Source of the DNA: Candidatus Saccharimonadota bacterium
GTDB taxonomy: Bacteria > Patescibacteriota > Microgenomatia > UBA1406 > GWC2-37-13
Reading direction: 5' to 3'
Assembly (NCBI GenBank): GCA_016700135.1
Contig: CP065004.1
Span: forward strand, 270,001 to 302,000
DNA length: 32,000 nucleotides
Each line of letters begins with the position of its first letter. The first letter of the stretch is position 1. Shown here piece after piece: positions 3,167 to 25,946 of this stretch. The translations under genes were made by a program, and so were the position numbers. The notes below the pieces were generated by a model. That model did not search any database. It worked only from the letters and a program-made list of their open reading frames with translations, and had not been told where the DNA came from.

Positions 3167-3220
3167 ATCATATAATAACAGTTTATAGACAACGCTATCT
3201 TTTATATTTATACTGTTGAA

Positions 3221-3916
3221 ATGCCATCAGAAAAAAAAATTCATAAAAAACTTACCCAAAAACTTGCTGCCCGGAAATTACCCCCGTCAGACAAGCGCCT
3301 TTATGCAGAAACTTTCATTTACAGTTTGATTGTCTTAGCAGTCATTACGGCATATTATTTTGTGACACGACCGGAGTATGATATGCGGACTTTTAATCGC
3401 GGTATTGCCGACTTGTCATTTTTACTGATGGGTATTTCACTGATTTTGAGCAGTGTCTGTTATTTCTGGAACTTTGCTGATCATTTCATTATTTATCGTA
3501 AACATTTGGGACTCATCGGTTTCGGATATATGATCCTGCATATCGTTATTTCACTCTTCTACTCAGCATATCAGCCGTTTTTGTTGTATTACCTGAAAGA
3601 CAGTCAGATTGTTTCGTTTAGTGCAGCACTTACTGCAACCGGTATTTTTACTTTAATGGCGGTTATTTCCAATCGTTTTTCGATTCAGAAAATCGGGCCG
3701 CATCGGTGGAGACTTATCATGAGGGTAGGATATATCGCATATGTCATGGCACTTATTCACTTTGCCTTGCGCGGATGGCCGTACTGGATGTTATGGCTTT
3801 CAGGGAAAAGCACATCACTATTCCCCTCATTTGGGCTTCTCGTATTTGTCTTCGGGTGCATTGTTGTATTGATGAGGATCGTGCTTTTTGCCGCGACAAT
3901 CAATAAAAAGGAGTAA
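3221..3916 (+). CDS. polytopic membrane protein, ferric-reductase-like (MsrQ/YedZ-type) TM domain, putative
   Basis: About six TM helices. YRKHLGLIGFGYMILHIVISL and LIHFAL resemble the His-bearing helices of YedZ/MsrQ-type heme-b domains. The assignment rests on motifs only. Confidence 0.4.
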   Translation: MPSEKKIHKKLTQKLAARKLPPSDKRLYAETFIYSLIVLAVITAYYFVTRPEYDMRTFNRGIADLSFLLMGISLILSSVCYFWNFADHFIIYRKHLGLIGFGYMILHIVISLFYSAYQPFLLYYLKDSQIVSFSAALTATGIFTLMAVISNRFSIQKIGPHRWRLIMRVGYIAYVMALIHFALRGWPYWMLWLSGKSTSLFPSFGLLVFVFGCIVVLMRIVLFAATINKKE

Positions 3917-3919
3917 CGA

Positions 3920-6451
3920 TCATTCTTTTCCGGCTCCGATCACAGGCTTGATGACAGTCATAAGAAGAAGAACTACGAATGCGATGACCGCAAACATCCC
4001 GAACTGTGCCGGCGAAACGGAACTCACATAAAAGACCTTTTGCAAAGCAGGAATTGAGACAATGCTGAATTGTGTAACAAAAGGAAGTGCAAAGGCCAGG
4101 AAAAAGATCGGAGAAAGAAGTTTGCCGAAATGAGTGAAGAGGTTTCTTTTGGAAAGCCATACATCGGCCAGAATAAATGACTGGATCAGTGCAAGTACAC
4201 TGAATGCTGCCGTATTCGCAAGCATTCTGTTGACGTCATAGAACCAGAAGAATGTCACGAGAACAATGGTCGAAGCTACAGCGCCTACGGCAAAAATGTA
4301 CCACAGGTCGATTCCGTCAAGAAGCTTCAGTTTTTTCTCAGGTTTCCGTTTCATCACATGCGGATCACGCGGCGAGAAAGCAAGCGCCAAAGCCGGTATT
4401 CCGTCGGTCACCAGATTGATGTACAAAAACTGGATCGGATAAAAAATATGAGGAAATCCAAGCAACAGCCCGACTATAAGAGACAGTGCCTCAGTCACAT
4501 TGCAGGAAAGCAGATACGTGATCGCATTACGCAGATTTTTAATGATATTTCTTCCTGACTCGATCGCATCAACAATAGTTGCGAAGTTGTCATCGGTGAT
4601 GACCATATCTGCCGTTTCACGTGCGACATCGGTCCCGACTTTCCCCATTGCGACCCCGACATCGGCTTGTTTGAGCGCAATAGCATCGTTTACACCGTCT
4701 CCCGTGACGGCGACAATCTCACCGCACTTCTGATAAAGCGAAACGATCTGATGTTTATGAAACGGTGTAACACGTGCAAATACCCGCACTTCCGGAAGAA
4801 TTTTGAGCAGATCTTCATCTATCATATGATCAAGCTGCTTACCCGTCAGAACTCTGTGATCTTTTTCCATGAGGCCTGATTCCAGCGCGATTGCTGCTGC
4901 CGTTTTTTCATTGTCACCGGTGACCATAACGACCTGGATGCCCGCACTGTGAGCGCGCTTGATCGCATCAACAATTTCCGGACGCGGAGCATCATAGATT
5001 GCAGTCATGCCGATAAAAATCTGCTTTTCGATTTTTTCCCCGTTGCCTTCCTTGTATGAAAATGCCAGCACCCGTAACCCCTGTTCTGCCCAGGTTTCGA
5101 GTACCTCCGAAATCTCTTCCTTCATCTGTTTTGTGAGAGATACGATTGTATTATTTACAAGGATATGTTCACAAAGCTCCAGTATAGATTCCGGGGCCCC
5201 TTTGCTGAGAGTATAAGATTCATCTTTTTGCGAGACTTTCACCGTCATTCTTTTACTGACACTGTCAAACGGGATCTCTTCAACCAGCTTCCAGGTATCC
5301 CTGATTGCTTCAGGAATACTTTCCGATTCCTGCGCAAGATACAGGAGTGCACCTTCAGTCGGATCACCGACCATATGGAATCCCTCACCGTTTTCCTTCG
5401 GCGTCAGCTTTGCAGTTGAGCAAAGCACGGAATTGAGAATAAGTTTTCTAAAGGCCTCTGATTTTTTGTTCTGATGGGTGTCTTTCTGGATTTTTCCGTC
5501 AAAATAGAGCTCCTTGACACGCATTTTGTTTGTAGTGAGTGTCCCTGTTTTATCGGTCGCAATCAGAGTGATACTGCCCAATGCCTCAACCGCAGTCAAT
5601 TTACGGACAATTGCTTTGCGTTTTGCCATTTCTTTCACACCGATTGAAAGGGTGATAGTCATGACGGCCGGAAGCCCTTCCGGAACTACCGCGACCGCAA
5701 GTGAGATTGCCAAAAGGAATGCGGCAAAGTATGCCGATCCCTGGAATGTTGCAAGGAAAAATACGACAAGAGAAGCGACAATCCCGATGATACCGATGAC
5801 TTTTGTTACCGATTCCAGTTTGGTCTGAAGGGGACTTTTTGCTTCTTCGATATTTGCAAGCTTACTGGCAATTTTACCGAAATGCGTCTGCATGCCGGTG
5901 GCTGTGACCTCCGAATATCCTCTTCCCCTTGTCACAATAGTGCCCATAAACGCTTCGTCTTTTACTTTCTTCGAAACTCCCATCGATTCTCCTGTCAAAG
6001 CAGCTTCATTGACCTCCAGATTGACGCTCTCGCGGATGATGCCGTCGGCCGGGACTTTTACCCCTTCTTCGATAAAAATAAAGTCTCCGGGCACAAGCAA
6101 ATGACTGTCAATTTCGATCTCCCTACCGTCCCGTATCACGCGGATTTTCGTGACAGTCATTTCCTTCAATGCCGCCAGAGCTTCATTTGCCTTATATTCC
6201 TGATACACTCCGAAGAGTGCGTTGAGGATGACAATTGCTAAAATAAGTGCCCCGTCAATCGGTTCGCCGATAAAAAAGGAAAGGAGTGCGGCTACAAAAA
6301 GAAGTACGGTTAAAAAATTGTTGAGCTGCTGATACAGAATGACAAAGAAATTTTCCTTCTTTTGTTCTTCGATTACATTTTGACCGTGTATTTTCAGCAG
6401 TTCTTCAGCCCGTTCAGTTGTTAATCCGCGCATAGGAGATGACAATATCAA
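3920..6451 (-). CDS. cation-translocating P-type ATPase, P2 (Ca2+-ATPase-like)
   Basis: DKTGTLT phosphorylation site, PEGLPAV (TM4), TGDN, GDGVNDAIALKQADVGVAMG, and the N-terminal Cation_ATPase_N-like GLTTERAEELLKIHGQN. Length is 843 aa. Confidence 0.9.
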   Translation of the reverse strand: MILSSPMRGLTTERAEELLKIHGQNVIEEQKKENFFVILYQQLNNFLTVLLFVAALLSFFIGEPIDGALILAIVILNALFGVYQEYKANEALAALKEMTVTKIRVIRDGREIEIDSHLLVPGDFIFIEEGVKVPADGIIRESVNLEVNEAALTGESMGVSKKVKDEAFMGTIVTRGRGYSEVTATGMQTHFGKIASKLANIEEAKSPLQTKLESVTKVIGIIGIVASLVVFFLATFQGSAYFAAFLLAISLAVAVVPEGLPAVMTITLSIGVKEMAKRKAIVRKLTAVEALGSITLIATDKTGTLTTNKMRVKELYFDGKIQKDTHQNKKSEAFRKLILNSVLCSTAKLTPKENGEGFHMVGDPTEGALLYLAQESESIPEAIRDTWKLVEEIPFDSVSKRMTVKVSQKDESYTLSKGAPESILELCEHILVNNTIVSLTKQMKEEISEVLETWAEQGLRVLAFSYKEGNGEKIEKQIFIGMTAIYDAPRPEIVDAIKRAHSAGIQVVMVTGDNEKTAAAIALESGLMEKDHRVLTGKQLDHMIDEDLLKILPEVRVFARVTPFHKHQIVSLYQKCGEIVAVTGDGVNDAIALKQADVGVAMGKVGTDVARETADMVITDDNFATIVDAIESGRNIIKNLRNAITYLLSCNVTEALSLIVGLLLGFPHIFYPIQFLYINLVTDGIPALALAFSPRDPHVMKRKPEKKLKLLDGIDLWYIFAVGAVASTIVLVTFFWFYDVNRMLANTAAFSVLALIQSFILADVWLSKRNLFTHFGKLLSPIFFLAFALPFVTQFSIVSIPALQKVFYVSSVSPAQFGMFAVIAFVVLLLMTVIKPVIGAGKE

Positions 6452-6484
6452 TAATATATTCTTTACAGTGTATCAAATTTCAGT

Positions 6485-7156
6485 TCATTTTATATACCCT
6501 TCTGCTTTCATACTGAGATATTTTTCACCGGTGACAATCACGTGATCTAGTATTTCAATGCCCAAAATATTTCCTGCTTCTGCAAGTTGAGCTGTAATTT
6601 TGATATCGGCATCAGATGGTGTGGGATCTCCTGACGGATGATTGTGTGCGACAATAATTGCTGCCGATTTATACGAAATTGCCGGCTCAAATACTTCCCT
6701 CGGGTGGACAAGGCTTGCACTCAGAGTACCGATTGAAATGATTTCCTTTCTCATAAGCTGATTCCGGGCGTTTAGCAGAAAGGCTACAAAATGCTCTTTT
6801 GCTTTTGACCGTATCTCTCTCAGCTGATCAGATACATCAGAAGGCGAGTTGATTGTCACTTCTTCATGCGATACTGCAGAATACAACCGTTTGCCGATTT
6901 CAAAAGCGGCAATAAGTGAGGCGGCTTTGCTTTGTCCCAATCCGTTAATACGCCCTAACTCACTCAAAGTCATTGAAGTGAGGCCCTCGATTTGTTTTCC
7001 GTCCAGTATTTCCCGTGATAAATCCAAAACGTTTTTCTTGGAGATACCAGTCCGAAGAAGCAGTGCGATTAACTCATAATCTTTGAGCTGAGCTGCTCCG
7101 AACCTTTTCAGTTTTTCCCTGGGAAGGATATGTGTCGGTACAAGCTTGTTATTCAT
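6485..7156 (-). CDS. radC: RadC-family JAMM protein (UPF0758)
   Basis: N-terminal HhH-like region (PREKL..FG...L.D.ELIALLLRTG) and C-terminal JAMM motif (VAHNHPSGDPTPSDADIKIT). Confidence 0.9.
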   Translation of the reverse strand: MNNKLVPTHILPREKLKRFGAAQLKDYELIALLLRTGISKKNVLDLSREILDGKQIEGLTSMTLSELGRINGLGQSKAASLIAAFEIGKRLYSAVSHEEVTINSPSDVSDQLREIRSKAKEHFVAFLLNARNQLMRKEIISIGTLSASLVHPREVFEPAISYKSAAIIVAHNHPSGDPTPSDADIKITAQLAEAGNILGIEILDHVIVTGEKYLSMKAEGYIK

Positions 7157-7182
7157 ATGTAATTACACACATATTATCATAT

Positions 7183-8346
7183 ATGTTTTCTTTTTTCCCT
7201 TGCGTGTATACTAAGAGTGTGAAAAACCGTATTCTTTCACTCTTATTGTTATTCTTTGTAGTTATTTCCCCACTTTTTTCGCCTGTTCAGGCACAGCGGA
7301 TCGCTGAATGTGATGCCTGCGGTTACTGCAACGGCAGAACACCTCCCGAGAACTGGGCATCATGTGCTGAGTGCTTGTATCCTGTGGAGTATGGTACGAA
7401 TCATGACCCAAAGGCCAATTTGACTCTTAAAATCAATGAAGATCGTGCAGCTGAGAATTTTAATAAGCCGCCCGTTCCCGCTTCCGGGAAATATTACACT
7501 CAACTCGGATGCCTGAATACGGGTCTGGGATCTTTTACGAACATCAGCTCCGCAGGGGGTGTCTTAAACTTTCTTCTTAATTATCTGATTTTTCCTGCTG
7601 CCGGAGTACTGGCATTTATGACCATTATTTACGGGGCATTTCTTTTGGTGACTGCTCAGGGTGACCAATTTAAAATCGCACAGGGTAAACGACTGGTTAC
7701 GAGTGCCGTCATCGGCCTCATTTTTACCTTCTCAGTCGTTCTGATCATCAATCTCATCGGCGCAAATATTCTGAAAATTCCCGGTCTTCAGGAAGATGAG
7801 GCATCCCAGGATTTCGCAAAAATCAAACTGGCAATCGAAAAGCTCAGCGATGCCACAGGACAGCTTCCCAATCATCTGGATCCGAATATCTGTGTCCACA
7901 ATCCTGAAGTCTTCATCGACAATGAGCGGGCCGGCCTTATTGCAACTGACGGGACTTTTCCCAATTGGAAAGGGCCATACCTTACGGATGCAGATGTGAC
8001 GGATCAATACGGTAAGGCATACTATCTCGACTCGGATTACAGATGTCGTCCTGATGTAAAAGGCTGTGAAACGGTGAATTTTGAATATAATAAATACGAT
8101 AGAATCACCGGAGGGAGAAGCAAGTTTGTGCGCGCCATTGTATCATTCGGAAAAGACAAAGAATCGAATTATTGTAATATCACGACTCAGTATATCTGTC
8201 GCGACAACAACCGGAGCTGTCAGCCTTTGAACAGTAATACCTGCCGGGATGACAGTAATCAGACATATACCTGCAACAATATTGAAGAACGCACCTGTCC
8301 CCGCACTGATGCAGACAATACGGTACTTGTATTGTGCGGATGGTAA
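7183..8346 (+). CDS. secreted Cys-rich surface protein with a central TrbC/VirB2-like (T4SS-pilin-type) membrane hairpin and a C-terminal GspG-like pseudopilin domain
   Basis: Signal peptide ILSLLLLFFVVISPLFSPVQA. Hairpin AGVLAFMTIIYGAFLLVTAQGDQFKIAQGKRLVTSAVIGLIFTFSVVLII. C-terminal region IKLAIEKLSDATGQLP...FPNWKGPYLTDADVTDQYGKAYYL matches the GspG globular pattern (W.GPYL...DPWG..Y.Y). Sixteen Cys lie outside the hairpin. The ORF opens at 7132 and overlaps the radC start. The ATG at 7183 or the GTG at 7219 is more plausible. Confidence 0.7.
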   Translation: MFSFFPCVYTKSVKNRILSLLLLFFVVISPLFSPVQAQRIAECDACGYCNGRTPPENWASCAECLYPVEYGTNHDPKANLTLKINEDRAAENFNKPPVPASGKYYTQLGCLNTGLGSFTNISSAGGVLNFLLNYLIFPAAGVLAFMTIIYGAFLLVTAQGDQFKIAQGKRLVTSAVIGLIFTFSVVLIINLIGANILKIPGLQEDEASQDFAKIKLAIEKLSDATGQLPNHLDPNICVHNPEVFIDNERAGLIATDGTFPNWKGPYLTDADVTDQYGKAYYLDSDYRCRPDVKGCETVNFEYNKYDRITGGRSKFVRAIVSFGKDKESNYCNITTQYICRDNNRSCQPLNSNTCRDDSNQTYTCNNIEERTCPRTDADNTVLVLCGW

Positions 8347-8506: not shown

Positions 8507-9082
8507 ATGACAAAAAATGTCAAACTATGGCAGCTGTACATCGTTCCTTTTTTGGTCATCCTGGCGATGATGGTTGCCGAACTGGCGAAGACCGAATACG
8601 CAAAGCACCTGCCGTTTGACCAAATCGCCAAAGAGACCAATGCTCTGGCCGAAATCGATTACAGAAGTATGCAGCGGGCCACCGTTTCACGTGTCATTGA
8701 CGGTGACACAGTAGAGCTTGAGACGGGAGAAAAAGTCAGATACATCGGAGTGGATACACCGGAAACAAAGCATCCCAACAAACCAGTACAGTGTTTCGGC
8801 AGGGAAGCCGCACAAAAAAACAAGGAACTTGTCGAAGGGAAGGAAATCCTTCTTGAAAAAGATGTCTCGGAAACTGACCGGTACGGCAGACTGTTGCGAT
8901 ACATTTATCTCCCCAATCCTGAAGCGACCGATGAGGCCATTTTCGTAAACGAACTTCTGATTGAGCAGGGCTTTGCTCAGGTGATCACCTATCCTCCGGA
9001 TGTGAAGTACCATCCGCTCCTTCTTCAAGCTCAGCAGCAGGCACAATCTGAAGAAAAGGGCTTATGGGGCTCCTGCAACTAA
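8507..9082 (+). CDS. membrane-anchored thermonuclease (staphylococcal nuclease/SNase family)
   Basis: VSRVIDGDTVELE.GEKVRYIGVDTPET.....PVQCFG.EA...NKELVEGKEILLEKD....DRYGRLLRYIY is the SNase OB-fold catalytic signature. It has an N-terminal TM/signal helix. Confidence 0.88.
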   Translation: MTKNVKLWQLYIVPFLVILAMMVAELAKTEYAKHLPFDQIAKETNALAEIDYRSMQRATVSRVIDGDTVELETGEKVRYIGVDTPETKHPNKPVQCFGREAAQKNKELVEGKEILLEKDVSETDRYGRLLRYIYLPNPEATDEAIFVNELLIEQGFAQVITYPPDVKYHPLLLQAQQQAQSEEKGLWGSCN

Positions 9083-10125
9083 TCTTTGATATACCAGACA
9101 GCAAGAAGAGTTGTCAAAGGGACCGCCGATACTATCCCGATACTACTGACCAATGTACGAACAATTTCCGTAGCAACGATCTCCATATTCATCACATCAG
9201 AAAGCGTTCCGAACTGGGAACTTGAAAACAGTACAAAAAGCGGAAGTGATGCACCGACATACACAAGAACTAATGTATTTACCAGCGATGCAATGTGATC
9301 ATGTCCGACGTCCATGGATTCCCGAAACAGCTCCCACCTCGAGAACTTCGGATTCGCTTTCTTGAGCTTTGATACGATTGAAGTCTGAGATATTGTAATA
9401 TCGTCCAAAACCCCCATCGCACCAATGATAATACCGGCAAGAAGAAGTGCCTGGATGTTGATAGTATCTCCCTGCTGTGCTGTTATGAAGGTCGCCTCTT
9501 CTGCCGAATATCCCGTCAGTTTTGCCAGATTTACAAAGACAACGGCTAAAATGGCAGTGAAAACCAGTGCCAAAAAGGTACTGATAACAGCGATCGTCGT
9601 TTTCCGTTTAATGCCGTGTGAAATATAAAAGGTGATAGGGATGACAAGAAGGGAAGCAACTAATGAAATCAGTATCGGATTATTGCCGAGAAGAATCTGC
9701 GGTACAATCATCTGTGCGATGATGAGAAACGAGAATGCCATCCCGAGAAACGAAAAGAACCCTTTCCTACGTCCTATCACAACAACAACTCCTAAGAAAA
9801 GGAAGAATAGTGCGGCAAGCGGCCACAGCCTGAACTGATCGACAATTATCACCTGTTCCCGACCTCCGGGACCCTCTATGAAATTTACAAGCACCTGATC
9901 ACCTTTATGCAGACCCTGATTTTCAATCTGCTTTTCATCAAACTGCAAGACCTGCAGCTCCTGTCCGGCACGATCACCTTCACTGATCTCCACCACAATA
10001 TTCCCGTTTGACAATTCGGTAATCGTCGCCCGAATCGGATCCTGATTTTGCGCATGCACGGAGCCCGGTAAAAAAATATTCCAAAGGAAGAAAAAAACGG
10101 TAAGGCAACTTAGAATTCGTTTCAT
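9079..10125 (-). CDS. YibE/F family membrane protein
   Basis: Signal peptide MKRILSCLTVFFFLWNIFLPGSVHA and a small extracytoplasmic domain, then a polytopic region with GRRKGFFSFLGM..., GVLDDITISQTSIV and MDVGHDHIASLVNTLVLVYVGASLPL, typical of YibE/F. The ORF opens at 10167. The start at 10125 (or 10137) avoids overlapping the upstream gene. Confidence 0.7.
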   Translation of the reverse strand: MKRILSCLTVFFFLWNIFLPGSVHAQNQDPIRATITELSNGNIVVEISEGDRAGQELQVLQFDEKQIENQGLHKGDQVLVNFIEGPGGREQVIIVDQFRLWPLAALFFLFLGVVVVIGRRKGFFSFLGMAFSFLIIAQMIVPQILLGNNPILISLVASLLVIPITFYISHGIKRKTTIAVISTFLALVFTAILAVVFVNLAKLTGYSAEEATFITAQQGDTINIQALLLAGIIIGAMGVLDDITISQTSIVSKLKKANPKFSRWELFRESMDVGHDHIASLVNTLVLVYVGASLPLFVLFSSSQFGTLSDVMNMEIVATEIVRTLVSSIGIVSAVPLTTLLAVWYIKD

Positions 10126-10129
10126 AATG

Positions 10130-11680
10130 TTAGGCATCAACTCCGACTGCTTCGGATATGTTCTCAAAACCGTCTTCTTTCATCATGTCGACAAGACCGT
10201 GATTGATTTGTGATATCCGCTGCGGCCCTTCATAAATCATGCCGGTGATCATCTGAACGAGAGTCGCACCGTATCTGATCTTGCGGTAGGCATCTTCCGG
10301 TGTGAATACTCCGCCGCAGCCTATGATGACAAACCTTTCTCCGAATTCACGGTACGCCAGTTTTATCAGTTCGTTCGAGCGTCTGAAGGTCGGCTTTCCG
10401 CTGAAATTTCCTTTTCCGGCTTGTGCAATCTCATCTTTGTGAAAGGATCCGTCTTTCCGGTCCTTTTGAAGATTTCCGAAAATGACGCCGGTTATATACT
10501 TGAACGATGAAATTGCTTTCAGCATCCCCCGTACCTCTTCATCGGTCTTTTCAATCGGCATTTTGACAAATACCGGCTTGCTTAGCTTGACCTTTTCGAC
10601 TGCCTTTAGAAGTTTCTTCAAATTTTCAGGCGGATAAAGACTCAGATTCCCTTTCAGATTGGGACAACTAATGTTGAGTTCATAATAACTGTTTTTCAGT
10701 TTTGATTTTTCGAATTTTTTAAAAGCCTGAACGATGTCATCAACGGCTTTTTCAAGAGTGTTTGTCTCTTCCGTATTTGTTCTTCCGACACTTATCCCCA
10801 CGGGAAACTCAAATTTTTTTCCTTCAAATTTTTCAATGATATGGTCAGCACCCGGATTACGGAATCCTTTGTTGACGAGAAGTGACTGCGATTTCGGAAG
10901 TCTGCCGAGGCGAGGCGATGCATTTCCTTCACAGGGTTTGTTGCTGATAGTTCCCACCGTCTGAAAACCGAATCCGACAGCCGGGAGAATTCCGGTAAAT
11001 ACGGCGTTGTAATCATATCCGGCGGCAAGACCGATGGGATTATCGAACCGGATTTTCCCGATTTTTACCTGAAGTTTTGGATTTTGGTACTTGAAAAAAT
11101 GTGTAAAGATGCGTCTTATCACGGGGATATTTCCGAATATCGGTCCCCAGAACATCGCCTGTTCATGGACAAATTCAGCGGGAAGCAGGAAGAAAAAGGG
11201 CTTTACGGCCAATTTATACAAAAATTCTATTTTGGCAAGCACGAAGGAACGGTATTCTTTCTGAAACCGCATTCGGACCACGATATACAGAAAGGTACTG
11301 GTCAAGGCCGAAAGTAAGCAGTACTGACACAATGCTCCGATGATGCCTATCTGAATATATACGAAATACAGTGAAAAAATGAAACCGAGTGCGGTTTGAA
11401 AAAAAAGTAGACGCTTGTAAAAAGCACTTTCAGAAGTAAATGACAGCCACGCAAAATAGCCGATCGCAGCATACTGAATGATACCCCAGATCGCAAGCGG
11501 AACCCCGAACATGATTGAGTATTCGCTCCGGAGTACGGTTCCGCAGTCTCCCAAAAACCCGATATGACAGGTCGCCAGCGGTTCATAAAAATGTTTGTAA
11601 GTGAGATAGCTTGCATCGATCAATCCGATCAGCACTGCAATAAATATTGCAAGTTGAAGGTTTTTGTGGAGTTTTGACAT
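10130..11680 (-). CDS. pyrD: fusion protein: N-terminal VKOR (vitamin K epoxide reductase family) domain + class-2-type dihydroorotate dehydrogenase
   Basis: The VKOR part is roughly aa 1-140. It has loop cysteines C38/C46 (ATCHIGFLGDCGTVLRSEYS..FGVPLA.WG), a TM CxxC (CQYC) and 4 TM helices. The rest aligns with E. coli-type PyrD, including its N-terminal helical domain: LYKLAVKPFFFLLPAEFVHEQ, NPIGLAAGYD, GFGFQTVGT, SPRLGRL, VNKGFRNPG, ELNISCPN, FSGKP, IIGCGGV, GATLVQMITGMIYEGP. It is one uninterrupted 516-aa ORF. Confidence 0.8.
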   Translation of the reverse strand: MSKLHKNLQLAIFIAVLIGLIDASYLTYKHFYEPLATCHIGFLGDCGTVLRSEYSIMFGVPLAIWGIIQYAAIGYFAWLSFTSESAFYKRLLFFQTALGFIFSLYFVYIQIGIIGALCQYCLLSALTSTFLYIVVRMRFQKEYRSFVLAKIEFLYKLAVKPFFFLLPAEFVHEQAMFWGPIFGNIPVIRRIFTHFFKYQNPKLQVKIGKIRFDNPIGLAAGYDYNAVFTGILPAVGFGFQTVGTISNKPCEGNASPRLGRLPKSQSLLVNKGFRNPGADHIIEKFEGKKFEFPVGISVGRTNTEETNTLEKAVDDIVQAFKKFEKSKLKNSYYELNISCPNLKGNLSLYPPENLKKLLKAVEKVKLSKPVFVKMPIEKTDEEVRGMLKAISSFKYITGVIFGNLQKDRKDGSFHKDEIAQAGKGNFSGKPTFRRSNELIKLAYREFGERFVIIGCGGVFTPEDAYRKIRYGATLVQMITGMIYEGPQRISQINHGLVDMMKEDGFENISEAVGVDA

Positions 11681-11714
11681 GTCTTATTGTACCACCAATT
11701 CGCGGCGGATTTGA

Positions 11715-12701
11715 TCATTCTTGAGCGTGCGATTCGACAAGCAGCTGGGTGATAAGACCGATGACCGCAGTCAGAATGAAGGCGAATATCCAGTTGCACA
11801 ACGCGTATACAAGCAACACAATTGCAGCAACAGTAAGGAATCCGTGAAGAAGTATTCTTACAAGTCGTTTTATTCTTTTCCCAAAGCCATAGAACAAGAC
11901 TCCGATTGCTCCGTATATCAATATGACGAGCCACCACCACGAAGCATTCTGACAGATATCATCCTGTTCGCCGAGTATATTTTCAGAAGGCTCTTCGGGA
12001 GTCGGTGTAGGCCTGCCTGCTTCAGTATTTTCTTCATCTTCCGAGATTCCGAACGCCGATCTCACGCTCCTTACGAGTGACCGAAAGGCATTTGACTGCA
12101 CCGCTCCTAATACTTCTCCTGTCCCGCCGCCCGGATTGGATGTACTTTGCGAGGTGCTTCCCCCACCTCCGGAGTTGGAAGATCCCTGCTGTGGAGTGGG
12201 TGTGTTTGTCGGGGTGGGCGTATTGGTAGGTGACTGGGCGATGTATCCGATATCAAGATCAAAACCCGTGCTTTTTCCCTGATAGTCGTTCCCGACATCT
12301 CTCATCGTAACCGTGTAGTGATATGTTATCGTATCACCGGGAAGAATCGTCCCCAACCCGATCTCGCCGCCGTCATACAAGTCCTGAAGAGTGCCTGTCC
12401 ATAATACGCTTCCGTCAGATTGCCGGCTGACTTCAAGATCCAGAACAGCTGCAATATTCTCACCGGGTGAAGTAGAAATATTCCGGGCTGCCTGTCCGAG
12501 ATATTTAAGCTCTCCGCTTGTATTGGTAACTGTCACTGGTTTAATTTCTGAACGGGTTGGATACCAGATTATGGATGAAGAAAAGAGTGGTTCGTCAAGT
12601 GTGACAGTAATATTTGCAGAAGTCTTTGTTACTGCATCGACTTTCGATGCCACAACGAACAAAAAAAAGAATAAGAGAATTCCCCTAACAAAATTCCGCA
12701 T
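11715..12701 (-). CDS. secreted TasA/camelysin-like beta-sandwich protein with a PT/GS-rich linker and a C-terminal multi-TM anchor
   Basis: Signal peptide ILLFFFLFVVASKVDA. GTILPGDTITYHYTVTMRDVGNDYQGKSTGFDLDIGYIAQ resembles the C-terminal strand block of the TasA/camelysin (M73) family (..N.YQG....FD..F.A.Q). Low-complexity SPTNTPTPTNTPTPQQGSSNSGGGGS is followed by three predicted TM helices (WWWLVILIYGAIGVLFYGF...). Confidence 0.55.
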   Translation of the reverse strand: MRNFVRGILLFFFLFVVASKVDAVTKTSANITVTLDEPLFSSSIIWYPTRSEIKPVTVTNTSGELKYLGQAARNISTSPGENIAAVLDLEVSRQSDGSVLWTGTLQDLYDGGEIGLGTILPGDTITYHYTVTMRDVGNDYQGKSTGFDLDIGYIAQSPTNTPTPTNTPTPQQGSSNSGGGGSTSQSTSNPGGGTGEVLGAVQSNAFRSLVRSVRSAFGISEDEENTEAGRPTPTPEEPSENILGEQDDICQNASWWWLVILIYGAIGVLFYGFGKRIKRLVRILLHGFLTVAAIVLLVYALCNWIFAFILTAVIGLITQLLVESHAQE

Positions 12702-12703
12702 GT

Positions 12704-13723
12704 TTAGAATGAACTTGTTAATGTTCTTACGTCTCCCTGAGCATTAGTGAATGTGACTTCAAGTAAAAATTGATTAGTATTTTCATCATAGGTGCATATT
12801 CCATCTGAACAGGTCGCGAGGTCAATGTCAGGACTTTGGTAATGGTTTTGTCCCGATACATCTACTAAACTCGGACCGATGCCTTGCTCCTTATCATAAG
12901 CAATGTAGGTAAGGGTATATTCCATCTGTGTGAATGCACCTATATTTGAAAGACTGAATGAGACCGTTTTACCGTCTTCCCTTTTCGCAAAGTAATTTAT
13001 TTCCGGGGGCAAAATAACTGCTTCAGAAAATGCCGATGCAATACGAAGTGACGGATCGTTTTCAGAAAGATTCTCTGCACGCGGCGTGCCGTAATTGCTT
13101 CCTTCAACATCCCAAAACCCGACATTATTGCAACCGTCAGATATACGGGTGTGCCAGCCTGTTGTCGGGTCACTGTTTCTTTCCATCGATTGGAAAAGTG
13201 GCGGTCCGTCAACTCCCGCAGCCCAGTTCCCTGTAGGCGTCTGATCGACTAAAACATGTGTGCTGTCATACAGGGAAATCACTTCCCCTGTCTGTAGAAA
13301 TGAAAGATTTGCCGTCGGCTGATCAAGGACAATGCTATTATGAAGAGCCGATTGAGGACTATTGGGATTGTAATTACTGACGAGGTAATACCCGTTTGGT
13401 GCGATGCTTCCTGTCAGTGTGATAATACTTGACCCTGCGCCCGCTCCTGTAAAATACCATCCTGACAGATTTACGGTCTCATTTGTCATATTTCTGAGTT
13501 CGATCCATTCATCATTATCATGAGCGCTGGATCCCATCCACATGATTTCATTGATGACGACTGTTCCCGTAACATCCGGCTCTTCTTCCTCGACCTCCCA
13601 AACACCGGCGGCCATAGAAACGCTTGCGGATTCGGTATCGATATATGAAGAACTCGTCCCGGGTATTCGGGGAAGTGCTAGCAGTATTATCAGTATGAGC
13701 AGCTTGAGTACATGGGTTTTCAT
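12704..13723 (-). CDS. lamin-tail-domain (LTD) protein with a SipW-dependent-type signal peptide
   Basis: N-terminus LLILIILLALPRIPGTSSSYIDTESASVSMAAGVW follows the TasA-type signal pattern (GT.a.F.DtE.s....aG.). VVINEIMWMGSSAHDNDEWIELRNMTNETVNLSGWYF is the LTD core. The start overlaps the sipW stop (ATGA, 13720-13723). Confidence 0.7.
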   Translation of the reverse strand: MKTHVLKLLILIILLALPRIPGTSSSYIDTESASVSMAAGVWEVEEEEPDVTGTVVINEIMWMGSSAHDNDEWIELRNMTNETVNLSGWYFTGAGAGSSIITLTGSIAPNGYYLVSNYNPNSPQSALHNSIVLDQPTANLSFLQTGEVISLYDSTHVLVDQTPTGNWAAGVDGPPLFQSMERNSDPTTGWHTRISDGCNNVGFWDVEGSNYGTPRAENLSENDPSLRIASAFSEAVILPPEINYFAKREDGKTVSFSLSNIGAFTQMEYTLTYIAYDKEQGIGPSLVDVSGQNHYQSPDIDLATCSDGICTYDENTNQFLLEVTFTNAQGDVRTLTSSF

Positions 13724-14370
13724 TTTTTCTTGTTATTTTTTTTCTTAAACAGTTTGCGCTCAATTTTTTCTTCCGTAGATTTTATCTCATCCTGCACCTC
13801 CATAACCTCCATGCCTACGGCCACTTCTGCATTTTCTATGAGCGACAGTTTTCTCTTTTTTCTTTCCCTGAGAAGTCTGATTGCTTCATTTTTGATAGTC
13901 ATCAGTTCGCTATAAATGATGATCGTGGCAGGAATGACTACAAGAGCGATAAGACCTGTTTGAGTTTTGGCAAAAGCTATCGGATAACCTAGATATGGAA
14001 CTGAGAGTATAACTTTCCCTTTTACTGACCCTGAAGGCACTTCAACTCCATCTGGTACGTCATTCGCATCTCCTTTTGTTGTAAAAGTCGTTTCTTGATC
14101 AGTATTAACACCGATAATTCTATGAGTTACTGTCTCGTTGTTCGCATCAGCAAATGTAATTATGTCTTCCTTTTGATATTTTTCGAACTGTCGAACAAAG
14201 ACCACACTTTTTGTCATAATTACTGGTTCCATTGAACCTGACTCAACAACATACATCTTCACGCCACCAGGAATATCAAGTACTGACGCAGCAGAGAAGA
14301 CAGCTATCACGATAAGCAGTACAACTACAAAGTTGTATATAATTTTTGATATTTTTTTTAAATTATTCAT
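13720..14370 (-). CDS. sipW: signal peptidase I, SipW/archaeal-ER type (S26B)
   Basis: N-terminal TM, catalytic VVESGSMEP (Ser), VTHRIIGV (His), TKGDANDVPD, a second TM near the C-terminus, and a long Lys/Glu-rich tail. The overall pattern resembles B. subtilis SipW. Confidence 0.85.
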   Translation of the reverse strand: MNNLKKISKIIYNFVVVLLIVIAVFSAASVLDIPGGVKMYVVESGSMEPVIMTKSVVFVRQFEKYQKEDIITFADANNETVTHRIIGVNTDQETTFTTKGDANDVPDGVEVPSGSVKGKVILSVPYLGYPIAFAKTQTGLIALVVIPATIIIYSELMTIKNEAIRLLRERKKRKLSLIENAEVAVGMEVMEVQDEIKSTEEKIERKLFKKKNNKKK

Positions 14371-14390
14371 TTAATAGTTAAATTCTCTCT

Positions 14391-14416
14391 TGGAGAGGAG
14401 ATGCATCTCCTCTCCA
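14391..14416 (-). promoter_or_regulatory. perfect 26-nt palindrome (intercistronic stem-loop between the tasA-like gene and sipW)
   Basis: TGGAGAGGAGATGCATCTCCTCTCCA equals its own reverse complement, giving an 11-bp stem with a 4-nt loop. It lies 16 nt after the tasA-like stop and 20 nt before the sipW ATG. No U-tract follows. Confidence 0.6.
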
Positions 14417-14432
14417 TTGACAAAATTCAACA

Positions 14433-15050
14433 TCATTGACCAGTTGTTTGTCCGAGTTCGAATGTCATATCAATTGACATATCATCACCCATCGCTTTAC
14501 TGTCATCTGAAGTTGACCACCAATCAAAGATTGCAGTGACACAGGCATTCTGACCAGCATTAAGGGCTGTATTTAGCTCATAACTACTGGCAAGACCATT
14601 TACGAGTCCATTGTAAAATGTGGTATCTCCAGTTCCAACCCATCCATTACAATCCAAGTCGTTAAATAGTCTTACATTGACAACATCTTGAAGTTCTCCT
14701 TCGTCAAGACCAGGATTACCACAACTGGTATCTCCCGCCTCTTGTTCAGGTTCAAGACATGAATTTTCATTGTTGGTTACAACAATGTTTTCAAGGTCAA
14801 TATATCCATTGACTGTTCCGACATTTTGCAAATTGAAAGTACCTTTCGGTTGACTTCCCGGTTTCATATTTGTGACATTGAATTTTGCTGAAGTCAAAGG
14901 ATTCTCTGAGTCTACAGCAAGGTCAAGTGTCCCGGATGCAAAAGTATTACCGGCACTAGTTTCTGTATCAATGAAATACGCACGAGTCGCTCCAACAGCT
15001 GAAGTTGCCACAAGAGCAATTGTCATGATACTTGCAAGAATTTTTTTCAT
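14433..15050 (-). CDS. TasA/camelysin-family protein with SipW-dependent-type signal peptide
   Basis: MKKILASIMTIALVATSAVGATRAYFIDTETSAGNTFASGTLDL is the textbook SipW-dependent signal/N-terminus. The C-terminal ...MSIDMTFELGQ strand fits the family. The SD AAAGGGGGTG lies upstream of the ATG. Confidence 0.85.
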   Translation of the reverse strand: MKKILASIMTIALVATSAVGATRAYFIDTETSAGNTFASGTLDLAVDSENPLTSAKFNVTNMKPGSQPKGTFNLQNVGTVNGYIDLENIVVTNNENSCLEPEQEAGDTSCGNPGLDEGELQDVVNVRLFNDLDCNGWVGTGDTTFYNGLVNGLASSYELNTALNAGQNACVTAIFDWWSTSDDSKAMGDDMSIDMTFELGQTTGQ

Positions 15051-15131
15051 TTTATGTACGCACCCCCTTTCTAATGAAGATAGAAAACAATCATGTCGGT
15101 TCTGTCAAGGAAAGTACACATTTACTACACA

Positions 15132-24674: not shown

Positions 24675-25946
24675 TTATATGGGTTCAATAAGACTGGGAA
24701 GAGTGAGAGGACAGGATACACCGAGGCAGATTCTGCGTTTGAAAACAACCTGTTCCAGTGTCCAGACAATAGCCAAAACTACGACCATCATGATAAGTCC
24801 TATTATGGCTGACTGGATTTTTTCACGGGCTGCCGTTACGGCATCTTTGTCCCCGCCTGATGTCACCCACGCAAAAGCACCGATAAGCATGTAGAAGAGT
24901 GCCGCAAGTCCTGCTATGACAAAAAATATTCGGATAGCAAAAGTCAGCAAATCCGAAAGAGTCGGGATGGCAAAGCCGAGTTCACTTGTGTCTACCATTA
25001 AGCCCTGTACTTCCGGTACAGCCGTGGGAGAAACCGCAAGTGTGATGACGGGTGAAGTCTGCACGGGAGTTTGGGTGATATCTGCAATCGGAATAACTGC
25101 CTCAGAATATTCCTGTGCTTCAGAATCCTGCATAGTAACCACCAGACTGTCATCACGGTATATCATCCCGCTGACCGGATTGGATACTGTCGGAGCCCAT
25201 GCGCTTGGCTCGCCCGACGGAAGGAAAAATGCAGCGAGGTAGCTTTGCCTTCTTCCGTCTATCTCAGTAAATTCACCGCCTACATACAGTAGATTATCCT
25301 GTATAACAATTGATCTTACCGGTCCGTTCAGAGACGGTGACCAGGCATTTAAGGCAGAGGTATCAAGATTGAATGATGCAATATATGACCGCTCTGCACC
25401 GGCAAAAGATGTAAAGGCTCCCCCTACAAACAGAGCATTATTGTATCTTTCAACAGCATATACCGGCGCATTTACTTCTATCGAAGGTTCAAGAACGGCA
25501 TTTGTATTGCGGTCTACCACAACGAAATACGGATGAGCTTCTCCGTTTATTTCCGCAAACTCTCCTGCCAGAAATAGGTATTGATTATATACCTCGATAT
25601 CATGTATTTTCCCGTTAAATAAAGGATTCCAGGGAAGCAGTGATTGGGTTTCAAGATCTATCAACGCAATATTGTTCCGTGAGATAGCAGAACTGCCTGA
25701 TAATTTTACCTGAGTGAAATTACCGACAAGATACATGACTTTATCATAAGTAAGCTGCTTCGAAATTGTCCCGTTGACTTCAATTTGTATCACTTCCTGA
25801 GATGGTTGCGAAGTTTGAGCCACAACATCTCCTGCACCGTAGGTCGACATGGGTATTGATAATGAAACCGAAATTAAAAATCCCAGAAGAAGAAGTTTTA
25901 TGCAAATGGATTGCATACAGTTTTGAAATGAGTGACAAATGTGCAT
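24675..25946 (-). CDS. secreted beta-propeller-repeat protein with a C-terminal TrbC/VirB2-like (T4SS-pilin-type) membrane hairpin
   Basis: About 50-aa repeats (LYVGGEFTEIDGRRQSYLAAF.....W.P..NGPV) look like DUF5122/delta-60-type propeller blades. The C-terminus is FFVIAGLAALFYMLIGAFAWVTSGGDKDAVTAAREKIQSAIIGLIMMVVVLAIVW. The likely true start is the ATG at 25916 (MQSICIKLLLLGF...). Confidence 0.7.
   Translation of the reverse strand: MHICHSFQNCMQSICIKLLLLGFLISVSLSIPMSTYGAGDVVAQTSQPSQEVIQIEVNGTISKQLTYDKVMYLVGNFTQVKLSGSSAISRNNIALIDLETQSLLPWNPLFNGKIHDIEVYNQYLFLAGEFAEINGEAHPYFVVVDRNTNAVLEPSIEVNAPVYAVERYNNALFVGGAFTSFAGAERSYIASFNLDTSALNAWSPSLNGPVRSIVIQDNLLYVGGEFTEIDGRRQSYLAAFFLPSGEPSAWAPTVSNPVSGMIYRDDSLVVTMQDSEAQEYSEAVIPIADITQTPVQTSPVITLAVSPTAVPEVQGLMVDTSELGFAIPTLSDLLTFAIRIFFVIAGLAALFYMLIGAFAWVTSGGDKDAVTAAREKIQSAIIGLIMMVVVLAIVWTLEQVVFKRRICLGVSCPLTLPSLIEPI

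Follow-up and report, generated by a model that had tools for sequence, protein, structure and literature searches.

A conserved four-gene module around a TasA-superfamily protein in Patescibacteria, a candidate cell-anchored donor-strand fibre system

Which members of a tightly packed gene cluster belong to one system, and which are only neighbours? This question is raised by six consecutive minus-strand genes at positions 9079–15050 of a 32,000-nucleotide stretch of DNA from a Candidatus Saccharimonadota bacterium (assembly GCA_016700135.1, contig CP065004.1, positions 270,001–302,000; hereafter the window), which GTDB places in the Patescibacteriota. An original prediction, made from the sequence alone, had read all six as a TasA-like surface-fibre system linked to a disulfide/quinone module. 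In our analysis, the fibre part of this interpretation is retained, with a major subunit, a peptidase, an LTD protein and an anchored TasA-fold protein as its candidates, whereas the link to a disulfide/quinone module is not. We consider it probable, if by no means assured, that the first four genes constitute a module that builds a secreted, cell-anchored fibre of the TasA superfamily by donor-strand exchange, and that this module is widespread in Patescibacteria.

In the following, we refer to the first four genes, in minus-strand order, as p1 to p4, and to the remaining two as VKOR::DHODH and YibE/F. All six open reading frames (ORFs) are present, and they, their junctions and a palindrome between the first two lie exactly where they had been predicted. 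A 62-nt spacer separates p1 from p2, p2 and p3 share a 4-nt ATGA overlap at 13720–13723, and the subsequent gaps measure 2 nt (p3–p4), 34 nt (p4–VKOR::DHODH) and 4 nt (VKOR::DHODH–YibE/F).

The candidate major subunit is p1 (14433–15050, minus strand), a protein of 205 amino acids. It was originally called TasA/camelysin-like, and with 54.5 bits against a cutoff of 22.5 it exceeds the gathering score of PF12389 (TasA/camelysin), in an alignment that covers residues 2–92 only, that is, its N-terminal half; fold and family profile agree with this assignment. Some of its 166 homologues carry the NCBI names TasA or CalY family, and PF12389 is present in all full-length homologues among the matches listed. 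Searched against PDB sequences, the p1 family profile finds TasA (5OF1/8AUR) at E 5e-6. The AlphaFold2 (AF2) model of p1, with a predicted local distance difference test score (pLDDT) of 90.7, is a jelly roll like TasA: among PDB entries it matches 8AUR best (E 3e-7), then 7PNB and 7UEG, and these best matches are all donor-strand filaments. With 30.2 bits, p1 remains below the cutoff of 450 of the Bacillus subtilis TasA equivalog NF046066, and we therefore regard it as a member of the superfamily, not as a TasA orthologue. Exact-sequence look-ups of p1 and of the protein P0001 returned no identical record.

In p1, a Sec signal with predicted cleavage after GATRA is followed by the donor-strand-like segment YFIDTETSAGNTF. 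In the family profile alignment, YFIDTETSAGNTFASGTLDL of p1 aligns to ..KSKDATFASGTLDL of TasA, directly after the signal cleavage site, and the TasA donor strand comprises residues 28–38 (PMC9674648). Four residues of p1 in this region, F26, D28, N35 and F37, form the donor-strand motif F-x-D...N-x-F and are kept in 90–99% of 99 family members. The mature protein is acidic (pI, the isoelectric point, 4.05), contains no histidine and has four cysteines. Disulfides in p1 are likely, because these cysteines co-vary as two pairs across the family; cysteine is wholly absent from 25 of the 99 homologues.

The second gene, p2 (13720–14370, minus strand; 216 amino acids), had been predicted to encode a SipW-type signal peptidase, and it indeed passes TIGR02228, the profile of the signal peptidase I type found in archaea and the endoplasmic reticulum (ER), with 109.6 bits against a cutoff of 51.85. 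It has two transmembrane (TM) segments and a lysine-rich tail, and its translation contains the boxes SGSMEP, THR and GDAN, with S46, H83 and D101, which we take, after the work on SipW, to be the catalytic residues. The boxes are kept in the six homologues that we read, save for single substitutions (SGSMES in locus L003; TGSMEP, MHR and GDNN in L010). As with p1, the assignment ends at the level of the broader family: p2 scores 113.5 bits against the Bacillus SipW equivalog NF046067, below its cutoff of 190.

A secreted LTD protein of 339 amino acids is encoded by p3 (12704–13723, minus strand). The predicted LTD lies at residues 51–161 and is above the gathering score of PF00932 (50.8 versus 34.3 bits); it is the only match of p3 in the Pfam and NCBIfam scans, which gave none related to TapA. 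The protein consists of a signal peptide, a degenerate TasA-type N-terminus (SSSYIDTESASVSMAAG), an acidic linker, the LTD and a C-terminal β-rich region. Its hydropathy profile has a single hydrophobic segment, the signal peptide, and thus no membrane anchor. In related loci, a TasA-profile N-terminus, spanning the first 40–100 profile positions, is significant in 20 of 35 LTD ORFs. We consider p3 a candidate for a tip, cap or nucleator subunit.

The fourth protein is p4 (11715–12701, minus strand). The original prediction described it as TasA-like; it has no match in Pfam or NCBIfam, and BLASTP finds no similarity between p1 and p4 (E = 1.1), but profile–profile and fold comparisons do recover the relationship. 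Combining homologue searches with the fourth genes of related loci, we built a p4 family, which yielded a shallow alignment of 18 rows; the word-indexed searches returned 13 and 7 proteins, these low numbers probably being due to the low-complexity linker. In this family, a signal peptide precedes a domain of about 140 residues, which is followed by a Pro/Thr-rich linker and a C-terminal anchor, and the domain ends in an invariant YQ within the motif G-N-[DE]-Y-Q-[GN]..F-D. Aligned with hhalign, the p4 family matches the p1 family with 96.3% probability and an E value of 1.6e-9 over 154 columns. In this register, the p4 protein of the window lacks 12 residues of p1, YFIDTETSAGNT, which are the counterpart of the TasA donor strand 28–38. 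Among PDB sequences, the p4 profile touches only TasA (5OF1 and 8AUR), with the NKYQG motif aligned. The four PDB entries that best match the AF2 model of residues 24–160 (pLDDT 91.2; predicted template-modelling score, pTM, 0.84) are the TasA fibre 8AUR (E 2e-6, query TM-score, TMq, 0.66), the Sulfolobus thread 7PNB, the cannulae 9H8B and the bundling pili 7UEG, all of which are donor-strand filaments of the TasA superfamily; the p1 model gives the same top list. Furthermore, PF12389 matches the p4 relatives in L008 (E 4e-4) and L003 (E 4e-3), and NCBI names the orthologue P0135 a 'CalY family protein'. By profiles and models, the N-terminal domain of p4 (residues ~24–155) is a remote TasA-superfamily domain, one that lacks the donor strand.

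At its C-terminus, p4 of the window has a PT/GS-rich linker and three TM segments, as had been predicted and as hydropathy agrees, and no cytoplasmic domain. Elsewhere in the family the end of the protein differs, with a single TM helix and basic tail in L001 and the LPXTG-like motifs LPETG, LPATG, LAQTG and LSATG, read as sorting signals, in others; sortase genes lie near the module in six loci. This variety points to cell anchoring, and we regard p4 as a candidate base, terminator and anchor subunit. We also noted that a short motif, [E/G]-V-L-G, recurs a few residues before the anchor (window 11715–12150; P0121–P0137; L008), which may be an unrecognized sorting or processing motif, and that the triple TM segment begins with C-x3-4-WWW.

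Do these four genes belong together in other genomes? A scan of species-representative genomes with the p1 profile gave 337 relatives, and 80 of the 337 loci were taken for a census with hidden Markov models (HMMs), in which we counted the 49 loci that extend 4.5 kb or more downstream of p1. The peptidase is present in 45 of these, p4 in 27 and the LTD protein in 21; 19 have all three. The corresponding numbers are 20, 16 and 14 among the 21 loci labelled as candidate phyla radiation (CPR), while in Chloroflexota 10 of 11 loci have the peptidase and none has p4 or an LTD protein. In five distant relatives, TasA, peptidase, LTD protein and p4 are followed by unrelated genes, for instance DivIC, CAP or PaaX, and VKOR, DHODH or YibE_F occur at just one of the 49 loci. 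Conservation of gene order in relatives therefore extends to the first four genes, not to the last two. By gene content and order, the conserved unit is composed of p1, p2, p3 and p4 and is syntenic across CPR classes. Parts of it have also merged: L008 (8675–10003) encodes SipW::p4 as a single ORF of 442 amino acids with an LPETG end, a fusion found in L008/L013, and L010 (5393–7999) encodes SipW::Ig::LTD as a single ORF of 868 amino acids. As read from these sequences, they are two independent fusions linking parts of the module.

The related loci hold some further arrangements. In L015 and L018, both labelled as Saccharibacteria, two paralogous modules stand back to back on opposite strands at about 3200–7700, in the order LTD–p4–peptidase–TasA and then TasA–peptidase–p4. 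Beside the module in distant relatives, recurrent genes encode large secreted proteins that bear a TM helix at the C-terminus (Big_13-like; L001 5990–7924, L003 5609–7312, L007 6579–7810), CAP-domain proteins, DivIC and sortases. Several contigs with a CPR-type module are labelled 'uncultured Gammaproteobacteria' or 'Aenigmatarchaeota' (L017, L022, L029, L031, L036, L044 and others; L016); these labels are probably binning or naming errors.

A comparison with the relative L022, whose DNA is ~90% identical to the window, sets p1 apart within this module: the identity is 91–97% for six neighbouring proteins and 54% for p1. In the DNA, the alignment is interrupted at 14472–14803 of the window (minus strand; L022 6244–6562), corresponding to about residues 83–193 of p1, while the signal, the donor strand and the last, C-terminal strand are retained. 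The GC content falls to 0.388 over 14001–15000. From this alignment, the p1 body is a hypervariable mosaic that has been replaced between close relatives.

A second feature accompanies p1. The spacer between p1 and p2 (14371–14432, minus strand) has as its core the perfect 24-nt palindrome GGAGAGGAGATGCATCTCCTCTCC at 14392–14415, lengthened by flanking pairs, and folds as RNA with −32.2 kcal/mol (z −6.3); none of 200 shuffles was as stable. An equivalent hairpin of unrelated sequence follows the p1 gene in all eight loci that we inspected, and in a census of the p1–peptidase spacers of L011–L089, 28 of 39 loci had z < −3, with a median z of −4.4. The stem-loop after the major-subunit gene is hence conserved in structure, not in sequence. 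A promoter and terminator scan, in which site numbers were no higher than in shuffles, found no canonical terminator there, and we do not call it one.

How does the module compare with systems that have been studied? With tapA-sipW-tasA of Bacillus subtilis (5OF1, 8AUR), it shares the superfamily of the major subunit, as judged by PF12389 and fold, a dedicated ER-type signal peptidase encoded alongside, and the beginning of the mature major subunit, which in both TasA and p1 has F at position 2, D at position 4 and then ..TFASGTLDL. Both also have a minor protein resembling the donor strand, p3 here and in Bacillus TapA, whose N-terminus resembles the TasA donor strand (PMC9674648). However, the major subunit is encoded last in Bacillus and first here, where the order is major subunit, peptidase, LTD protein and anchor. 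There is no TapA homologue, with p3 carrying an LTD instead, and the donor-less TasA-fold protein with its TM or LPXTG anchor is an addition. Moreover, p1 and p2 miss the TasA and SipW equivalog cutoffs, and the host has a Patescibacteria-type genome.

The haloarchaeal Tafi system comprises the pilins TafA/TafE, the signal peptidase TafD, the tip TafC, the membrane anchor TafF and the DUF5305 protein TafG (PMC11821415, PMC12337348). Its parts list is the same, with a pilin of the donor-strand type, a signal peptidase dedicated to it and proteins proposed as tip and as anchor, the latter made of a jelly-roll-like domain and a TM helix, and there, too, the peptidase is conserved while the structural genes vary. 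By contrast, Tafi pilins have Tat signals, while the signal of p1 is of the ordinary Sec type and its N-terminus, MKKILASIMT, lacks the RR motif; TafF has its TM helix at the N-terminus, while the TM region or LPXTG of p4 is at the C-terminus; and the proteins scanned included no DUF5305 partner. We liken p3 and p4 to TafC and TafF by description, not by sequence.

The bacterial loci of AbpX bundling fibres contain a peptidase, minor or tip subunits, LPXTG or SLH anchors and sortases (PDB 9SJ2, 9RHP), and their LPXTG anchors are predicted to join the fibre by strand complementation (bioRxiv 10.64898/2026.01.04.697558). Of these parts, the peptidase, the minor or tip subunits and the anchors of LPXTG type find their parallels here, and the p1 profile gives a weak match to AbpX (E 0.023). 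TasA is matched better (E 5e-6), and the AbpX-associated peptidase has ten TM helices where p2 has two. Lastly, the Pyrobaculum bundling pili AbpA/AbpB (PDB 7UEG) have the TasA-superfamily fold and donor-strand assembly that p1 is predicted to share, and the downstream multi-domain protein AbpB has been proposed to start the filament by strand donation and to act as an adhesin (PMC9245690), the role that we propose for p3. Their similarity to p1 is at the fold level only (E 5e-4), and their operon, unlike this locus, has no dedicated peptidase. Since the equivalogs are missed, TapA is lacking, the signal is not of the Tat type and none of the proteins scanned matches DUF5305, the module is best regarded as a distinct variant that is orthologous to none of the systems studied.

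By analogy with TasA/TapA, Tafi and AbpX, these parts can be arranged into an assembly pathway. The Sec system would export p1 and p3, and the dedicated peptidase p2 would cut both, freeing an N-terminal strand, YFIDTETSAGNTF in p1 and a weaker equivalent, SYIDTESASVSM, in p3. With a donor strand and no TasA groove domain of its own, p3 would give its strand to the first p1, like TapA, and would end up at the distal end of the fibre with the LTD displayed. Each p1 would then put its own strand into the next p1. Finally, p4, with an acceptor fold and no donor strand, would take the strand of the last p1, thereby ending growth and tying the fibre to the cell, by three TM helices on a PT-rich stalk in the window and by a single TM helix or an LPXTG/sortase link in relatives. 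Our guess is that the stem-loop following p1 probably favours the major subunit over the accessory proteins, through read-through attenuation or stabilization of the p1 transcript. Such a tip-first, anchor-last order parallels that of sortase and chaperone–usher pili.

Several observations weigh against this proposal. Donor-strand exchange among p1, p3 and p4 is argued from homology, and the N-terminal signals are recognized with varying success. In p1, the SipW-type signal originally described as canonical is visible by eye and conserved throughout the family, but the protein reaches only 15.8 bits (E 0.012) against TIGR04088, the profile for SipW-dependent signals, whose cutoff is 19. In p3, to which such a signal had likewise been ascribed, SSSYIDTESASVSMAAG is in register with TRAYFIDTETSAGNTFASG of the TasA profile (positions 3–51), but at a weak 4.5 bits, and TIGR04088 does not match. 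Furthermore, p4 is missing from 18 of the 45 loci with SipW, and in L009 (8001–9029) and L091 (4260–5138) p4 homologues stand beside VKOR::DHODH, and the interval between p4 and an amine-oxidase gene contains neither a TasA nor a peptidase nor an LTD gene; because it occurs there without adjacent TasA, SipW and LTD genes, p4 can persist on its own. Instead of serving as an acceptor, p4 may be permanently self-complemented. Lastly, there is no U-tract 3′ of the p1–p2 hairpin, which leaves its regulatory role a guess.

Given these points, other explanations have to be considered. One is that p1 does not form filaments at all but is a secreted monomer or a surface protein, such as a protease akin to camelysin, a protein of antimicrobial or spore-coat type or a component resembling those of a matrix or S-layer, and that the cluster merely collects the substrates of one peptidase. 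The names in the databases lean this way, as the Pfam family is called a metallo-endopeptidase and homologues are labelled by the Joint Genome Institute (JGI) as 'ribosomally synthesized peptide with SipW-like signal' or 'spore coat-associated protein N', and fibre formation by p1 is, as stated above, argued from homology. We nevertheless deem this explanation very unlikely. Its protease version is excluded, as mature p1 has no histidine and HExxH occurs in none of the 99 family members, and the high conservation of the donor-strand motif and the uniformly filamentous best fold matches both speak for polymerization, without which a donor-less paralogue with a cell anchor would be hard to explain. 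Another possibility concerns p4, which might assist the signal peptidase as an accessory or assembly subunit, similar to DUF5305/TafG, or a chaperone for unpolymerized p1, with p3 being an independent secreted LTD protein that shares the peptidase. DUF5305 proteins have been described as a β-sandwich with TM helices that is sometimes fused to signal peptidase I, which recalls the SipW::p4 ORF of L008/L013, and the survival of p4 without p1 in L009 and L091 would fit as well. However, DUF5305 matches neither p4 of the window (E up to 0.1) nor seven p4 homologues (E up to 1), p4 lacks a cytoplasmic domain, and its fold and profile match TasA itself. The LPXTG-type ends of several members imply a covalent attachment to the wall that is hard to square with a subunit of a membrane peptidase, and the fused L008 protein retains an internal signal-like segment besides its LPETG, consistent with release after cleavage. 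We therefore consider an accessory role unlikely and favour p4 as the anchor of a fibre.

The remaining alternative is the original one, in which the last two genes of the cluster belong to the system as well, and whose assessment depends on what these genes are and where they occur. Their identities, a VKOR–DHODH fusion and a YibE/F protein, were predicted correctly, with profile scores above cutoff. VKOR::DHODH (10130–11680, minus strand) scores 81.1 bits (cutoff 27.5) against PF07884, 172.7 against PF01180, 284.9 (267) against NF003652 and 217.8 (200) against TIGR01036; its DHODH part is a complete class-2, quinone-dependent enzyme, and in the translation the VKOR loop cysteines C38 and C46 and the CQYC motif (118–121) are intact. 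YibE/F (9079–10125, minus strand), whose reading frame is also open upstream to a TTG at 10167, scores 235.6 bits against PF07907 (cutoff 27.2). The fusion has at least nine full-length representatives at 50% clustering, the distribution of YibE/F matches its distribution, and a literature search found no description of a VKOR–DHODH fusion. Both domains of the fusion act on quinone, and the host group is generally described as having no respiratory chain; one possibility is that the fusion is a self-contained coupling of thiol oxidation to the orotate/dihydroorotate couple.

That all six genes form one system, with VKOR::DHODH and YibE/F as dedicated partners of the fibre and VKOR forming disulfides in its subunits coupled to a quinone/pyrimidine module, seems at first plausible in view of the tight co-directional spacing, with gaps of 34 and 4 nt, the paired cysteines of p1, the VKOR catalytic cysteines read from the translation, and the adjacency of p4, VKOR::DHODH and YibE_F, which is maintained even where the fusion protein is no more than 50% identical (L009, L010, L022 and L091). 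Yet the only one of the 49 TasA loci with VKOR, DHODH or YibE_F is L022, the close relative introduced above; they are absent from the other 48. In the lineage of the window itself, it is a backbone of amine oxidase, p4, VKOR::DHODH, YibE_F and SNase that is kept over the same range of identity, while the TasA–SipW–LTD stretch on it varies: L009 and L091 lack it, and L010 has it in rearranged form. Because the backbone, including an intact VKOR::DHODH/YibE_F/SNase block, persists where TasA, SipW and LTD are missing, we see in the adjacency of p4, VKOR::DHODH and YibE/F an inherited synteny without a conserved functional link. In addition, DHODH is a housekeeping enzyme of pyrimidine synthesis, and a quarter of the p1 homologues examined (25 of 99) are free of cysteine. 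We thus find a six-gene system highly improbable; from their distribution, VKOR::DHODH and YibE/F appear to be lineage-inherited neighbours outside the conserved fibre module. They are probably co-transcribed with the fibre genes, and VKOR may, as a plausible general oxidant, supply disulfides to p1 as to any exported protein. This example carries a caution, as tight spacing in compact genomes easily suggests function at the operon level where there is only inherited adjacency.

Besides these genes, two features of the window deserve mention. The spacer upstream of p1 (15051–15131, minus strand) contains a perfect TTGACA hexamer at 15108–15103 and a GGGGG ribosome-binding site at 15067–15063, and is a candidate promoter region only: a scan for consensus promoters left it unflagged, and in this region promoter-like sites do not exceed their frequency in shuffles. 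Elsewhere, the regions 7132–8346 (plus strand) and 24675–25946 (minus strand) give sub-threshold matches to PF18895, a type IV secretion pilin family whose cutoff is 26.6 bits, scoring 22.2 and 21.8; the C-terminal region of the former product is rich in cysteine.

The original prediction knew of no experimental characterization of such an arrangement. TasA homologues in Patescibacteria had already been noted from Pfam distributions (PMC9245690), and loci combining pilin, peptidase, tip and anchor have been published for Tafi and AbpX. Our literature search found no paper on this module in the CPR, nor one joining 'candidate phyla radiation' with SipW.

What could such a fibre be for? Cultivated Patescibacteria live attached to host cells, and to our knowledge, only type IV pili have so far been tied to this attachment. 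A role of the fibre in host attachment is speculation. In its fullest form, which we put forward as a doubtful extension of the fibre reading, type IV pili would be joined in Patescibacteria by another adhesive appendage, present throughout the phylum: a donor-strand fibre that needs no chaperone and has a cap at each end, with a strand-donating LTD adhesin as its tip and a donor-less TasA-fold terminator as its base, fixed to the membrane or, by sortase, to the wall. The exposed p1 body would be swapped between close strains, and the fibre would set the specificity of the epibiont for its host or surface. Irrespective of this, a donor-less TasA-fold anchor and a strand-bearing LTD protein would provide a simple picture of how a chaperone-free fibre may be started, ended and fixed on a monoderm cell, a question that likewise stands for TasA. 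A second, widely conserved fibre module with a parts list would also offer concrete candidates for Saccharibacteria genetics and electron cryotomography (cryo-ET).

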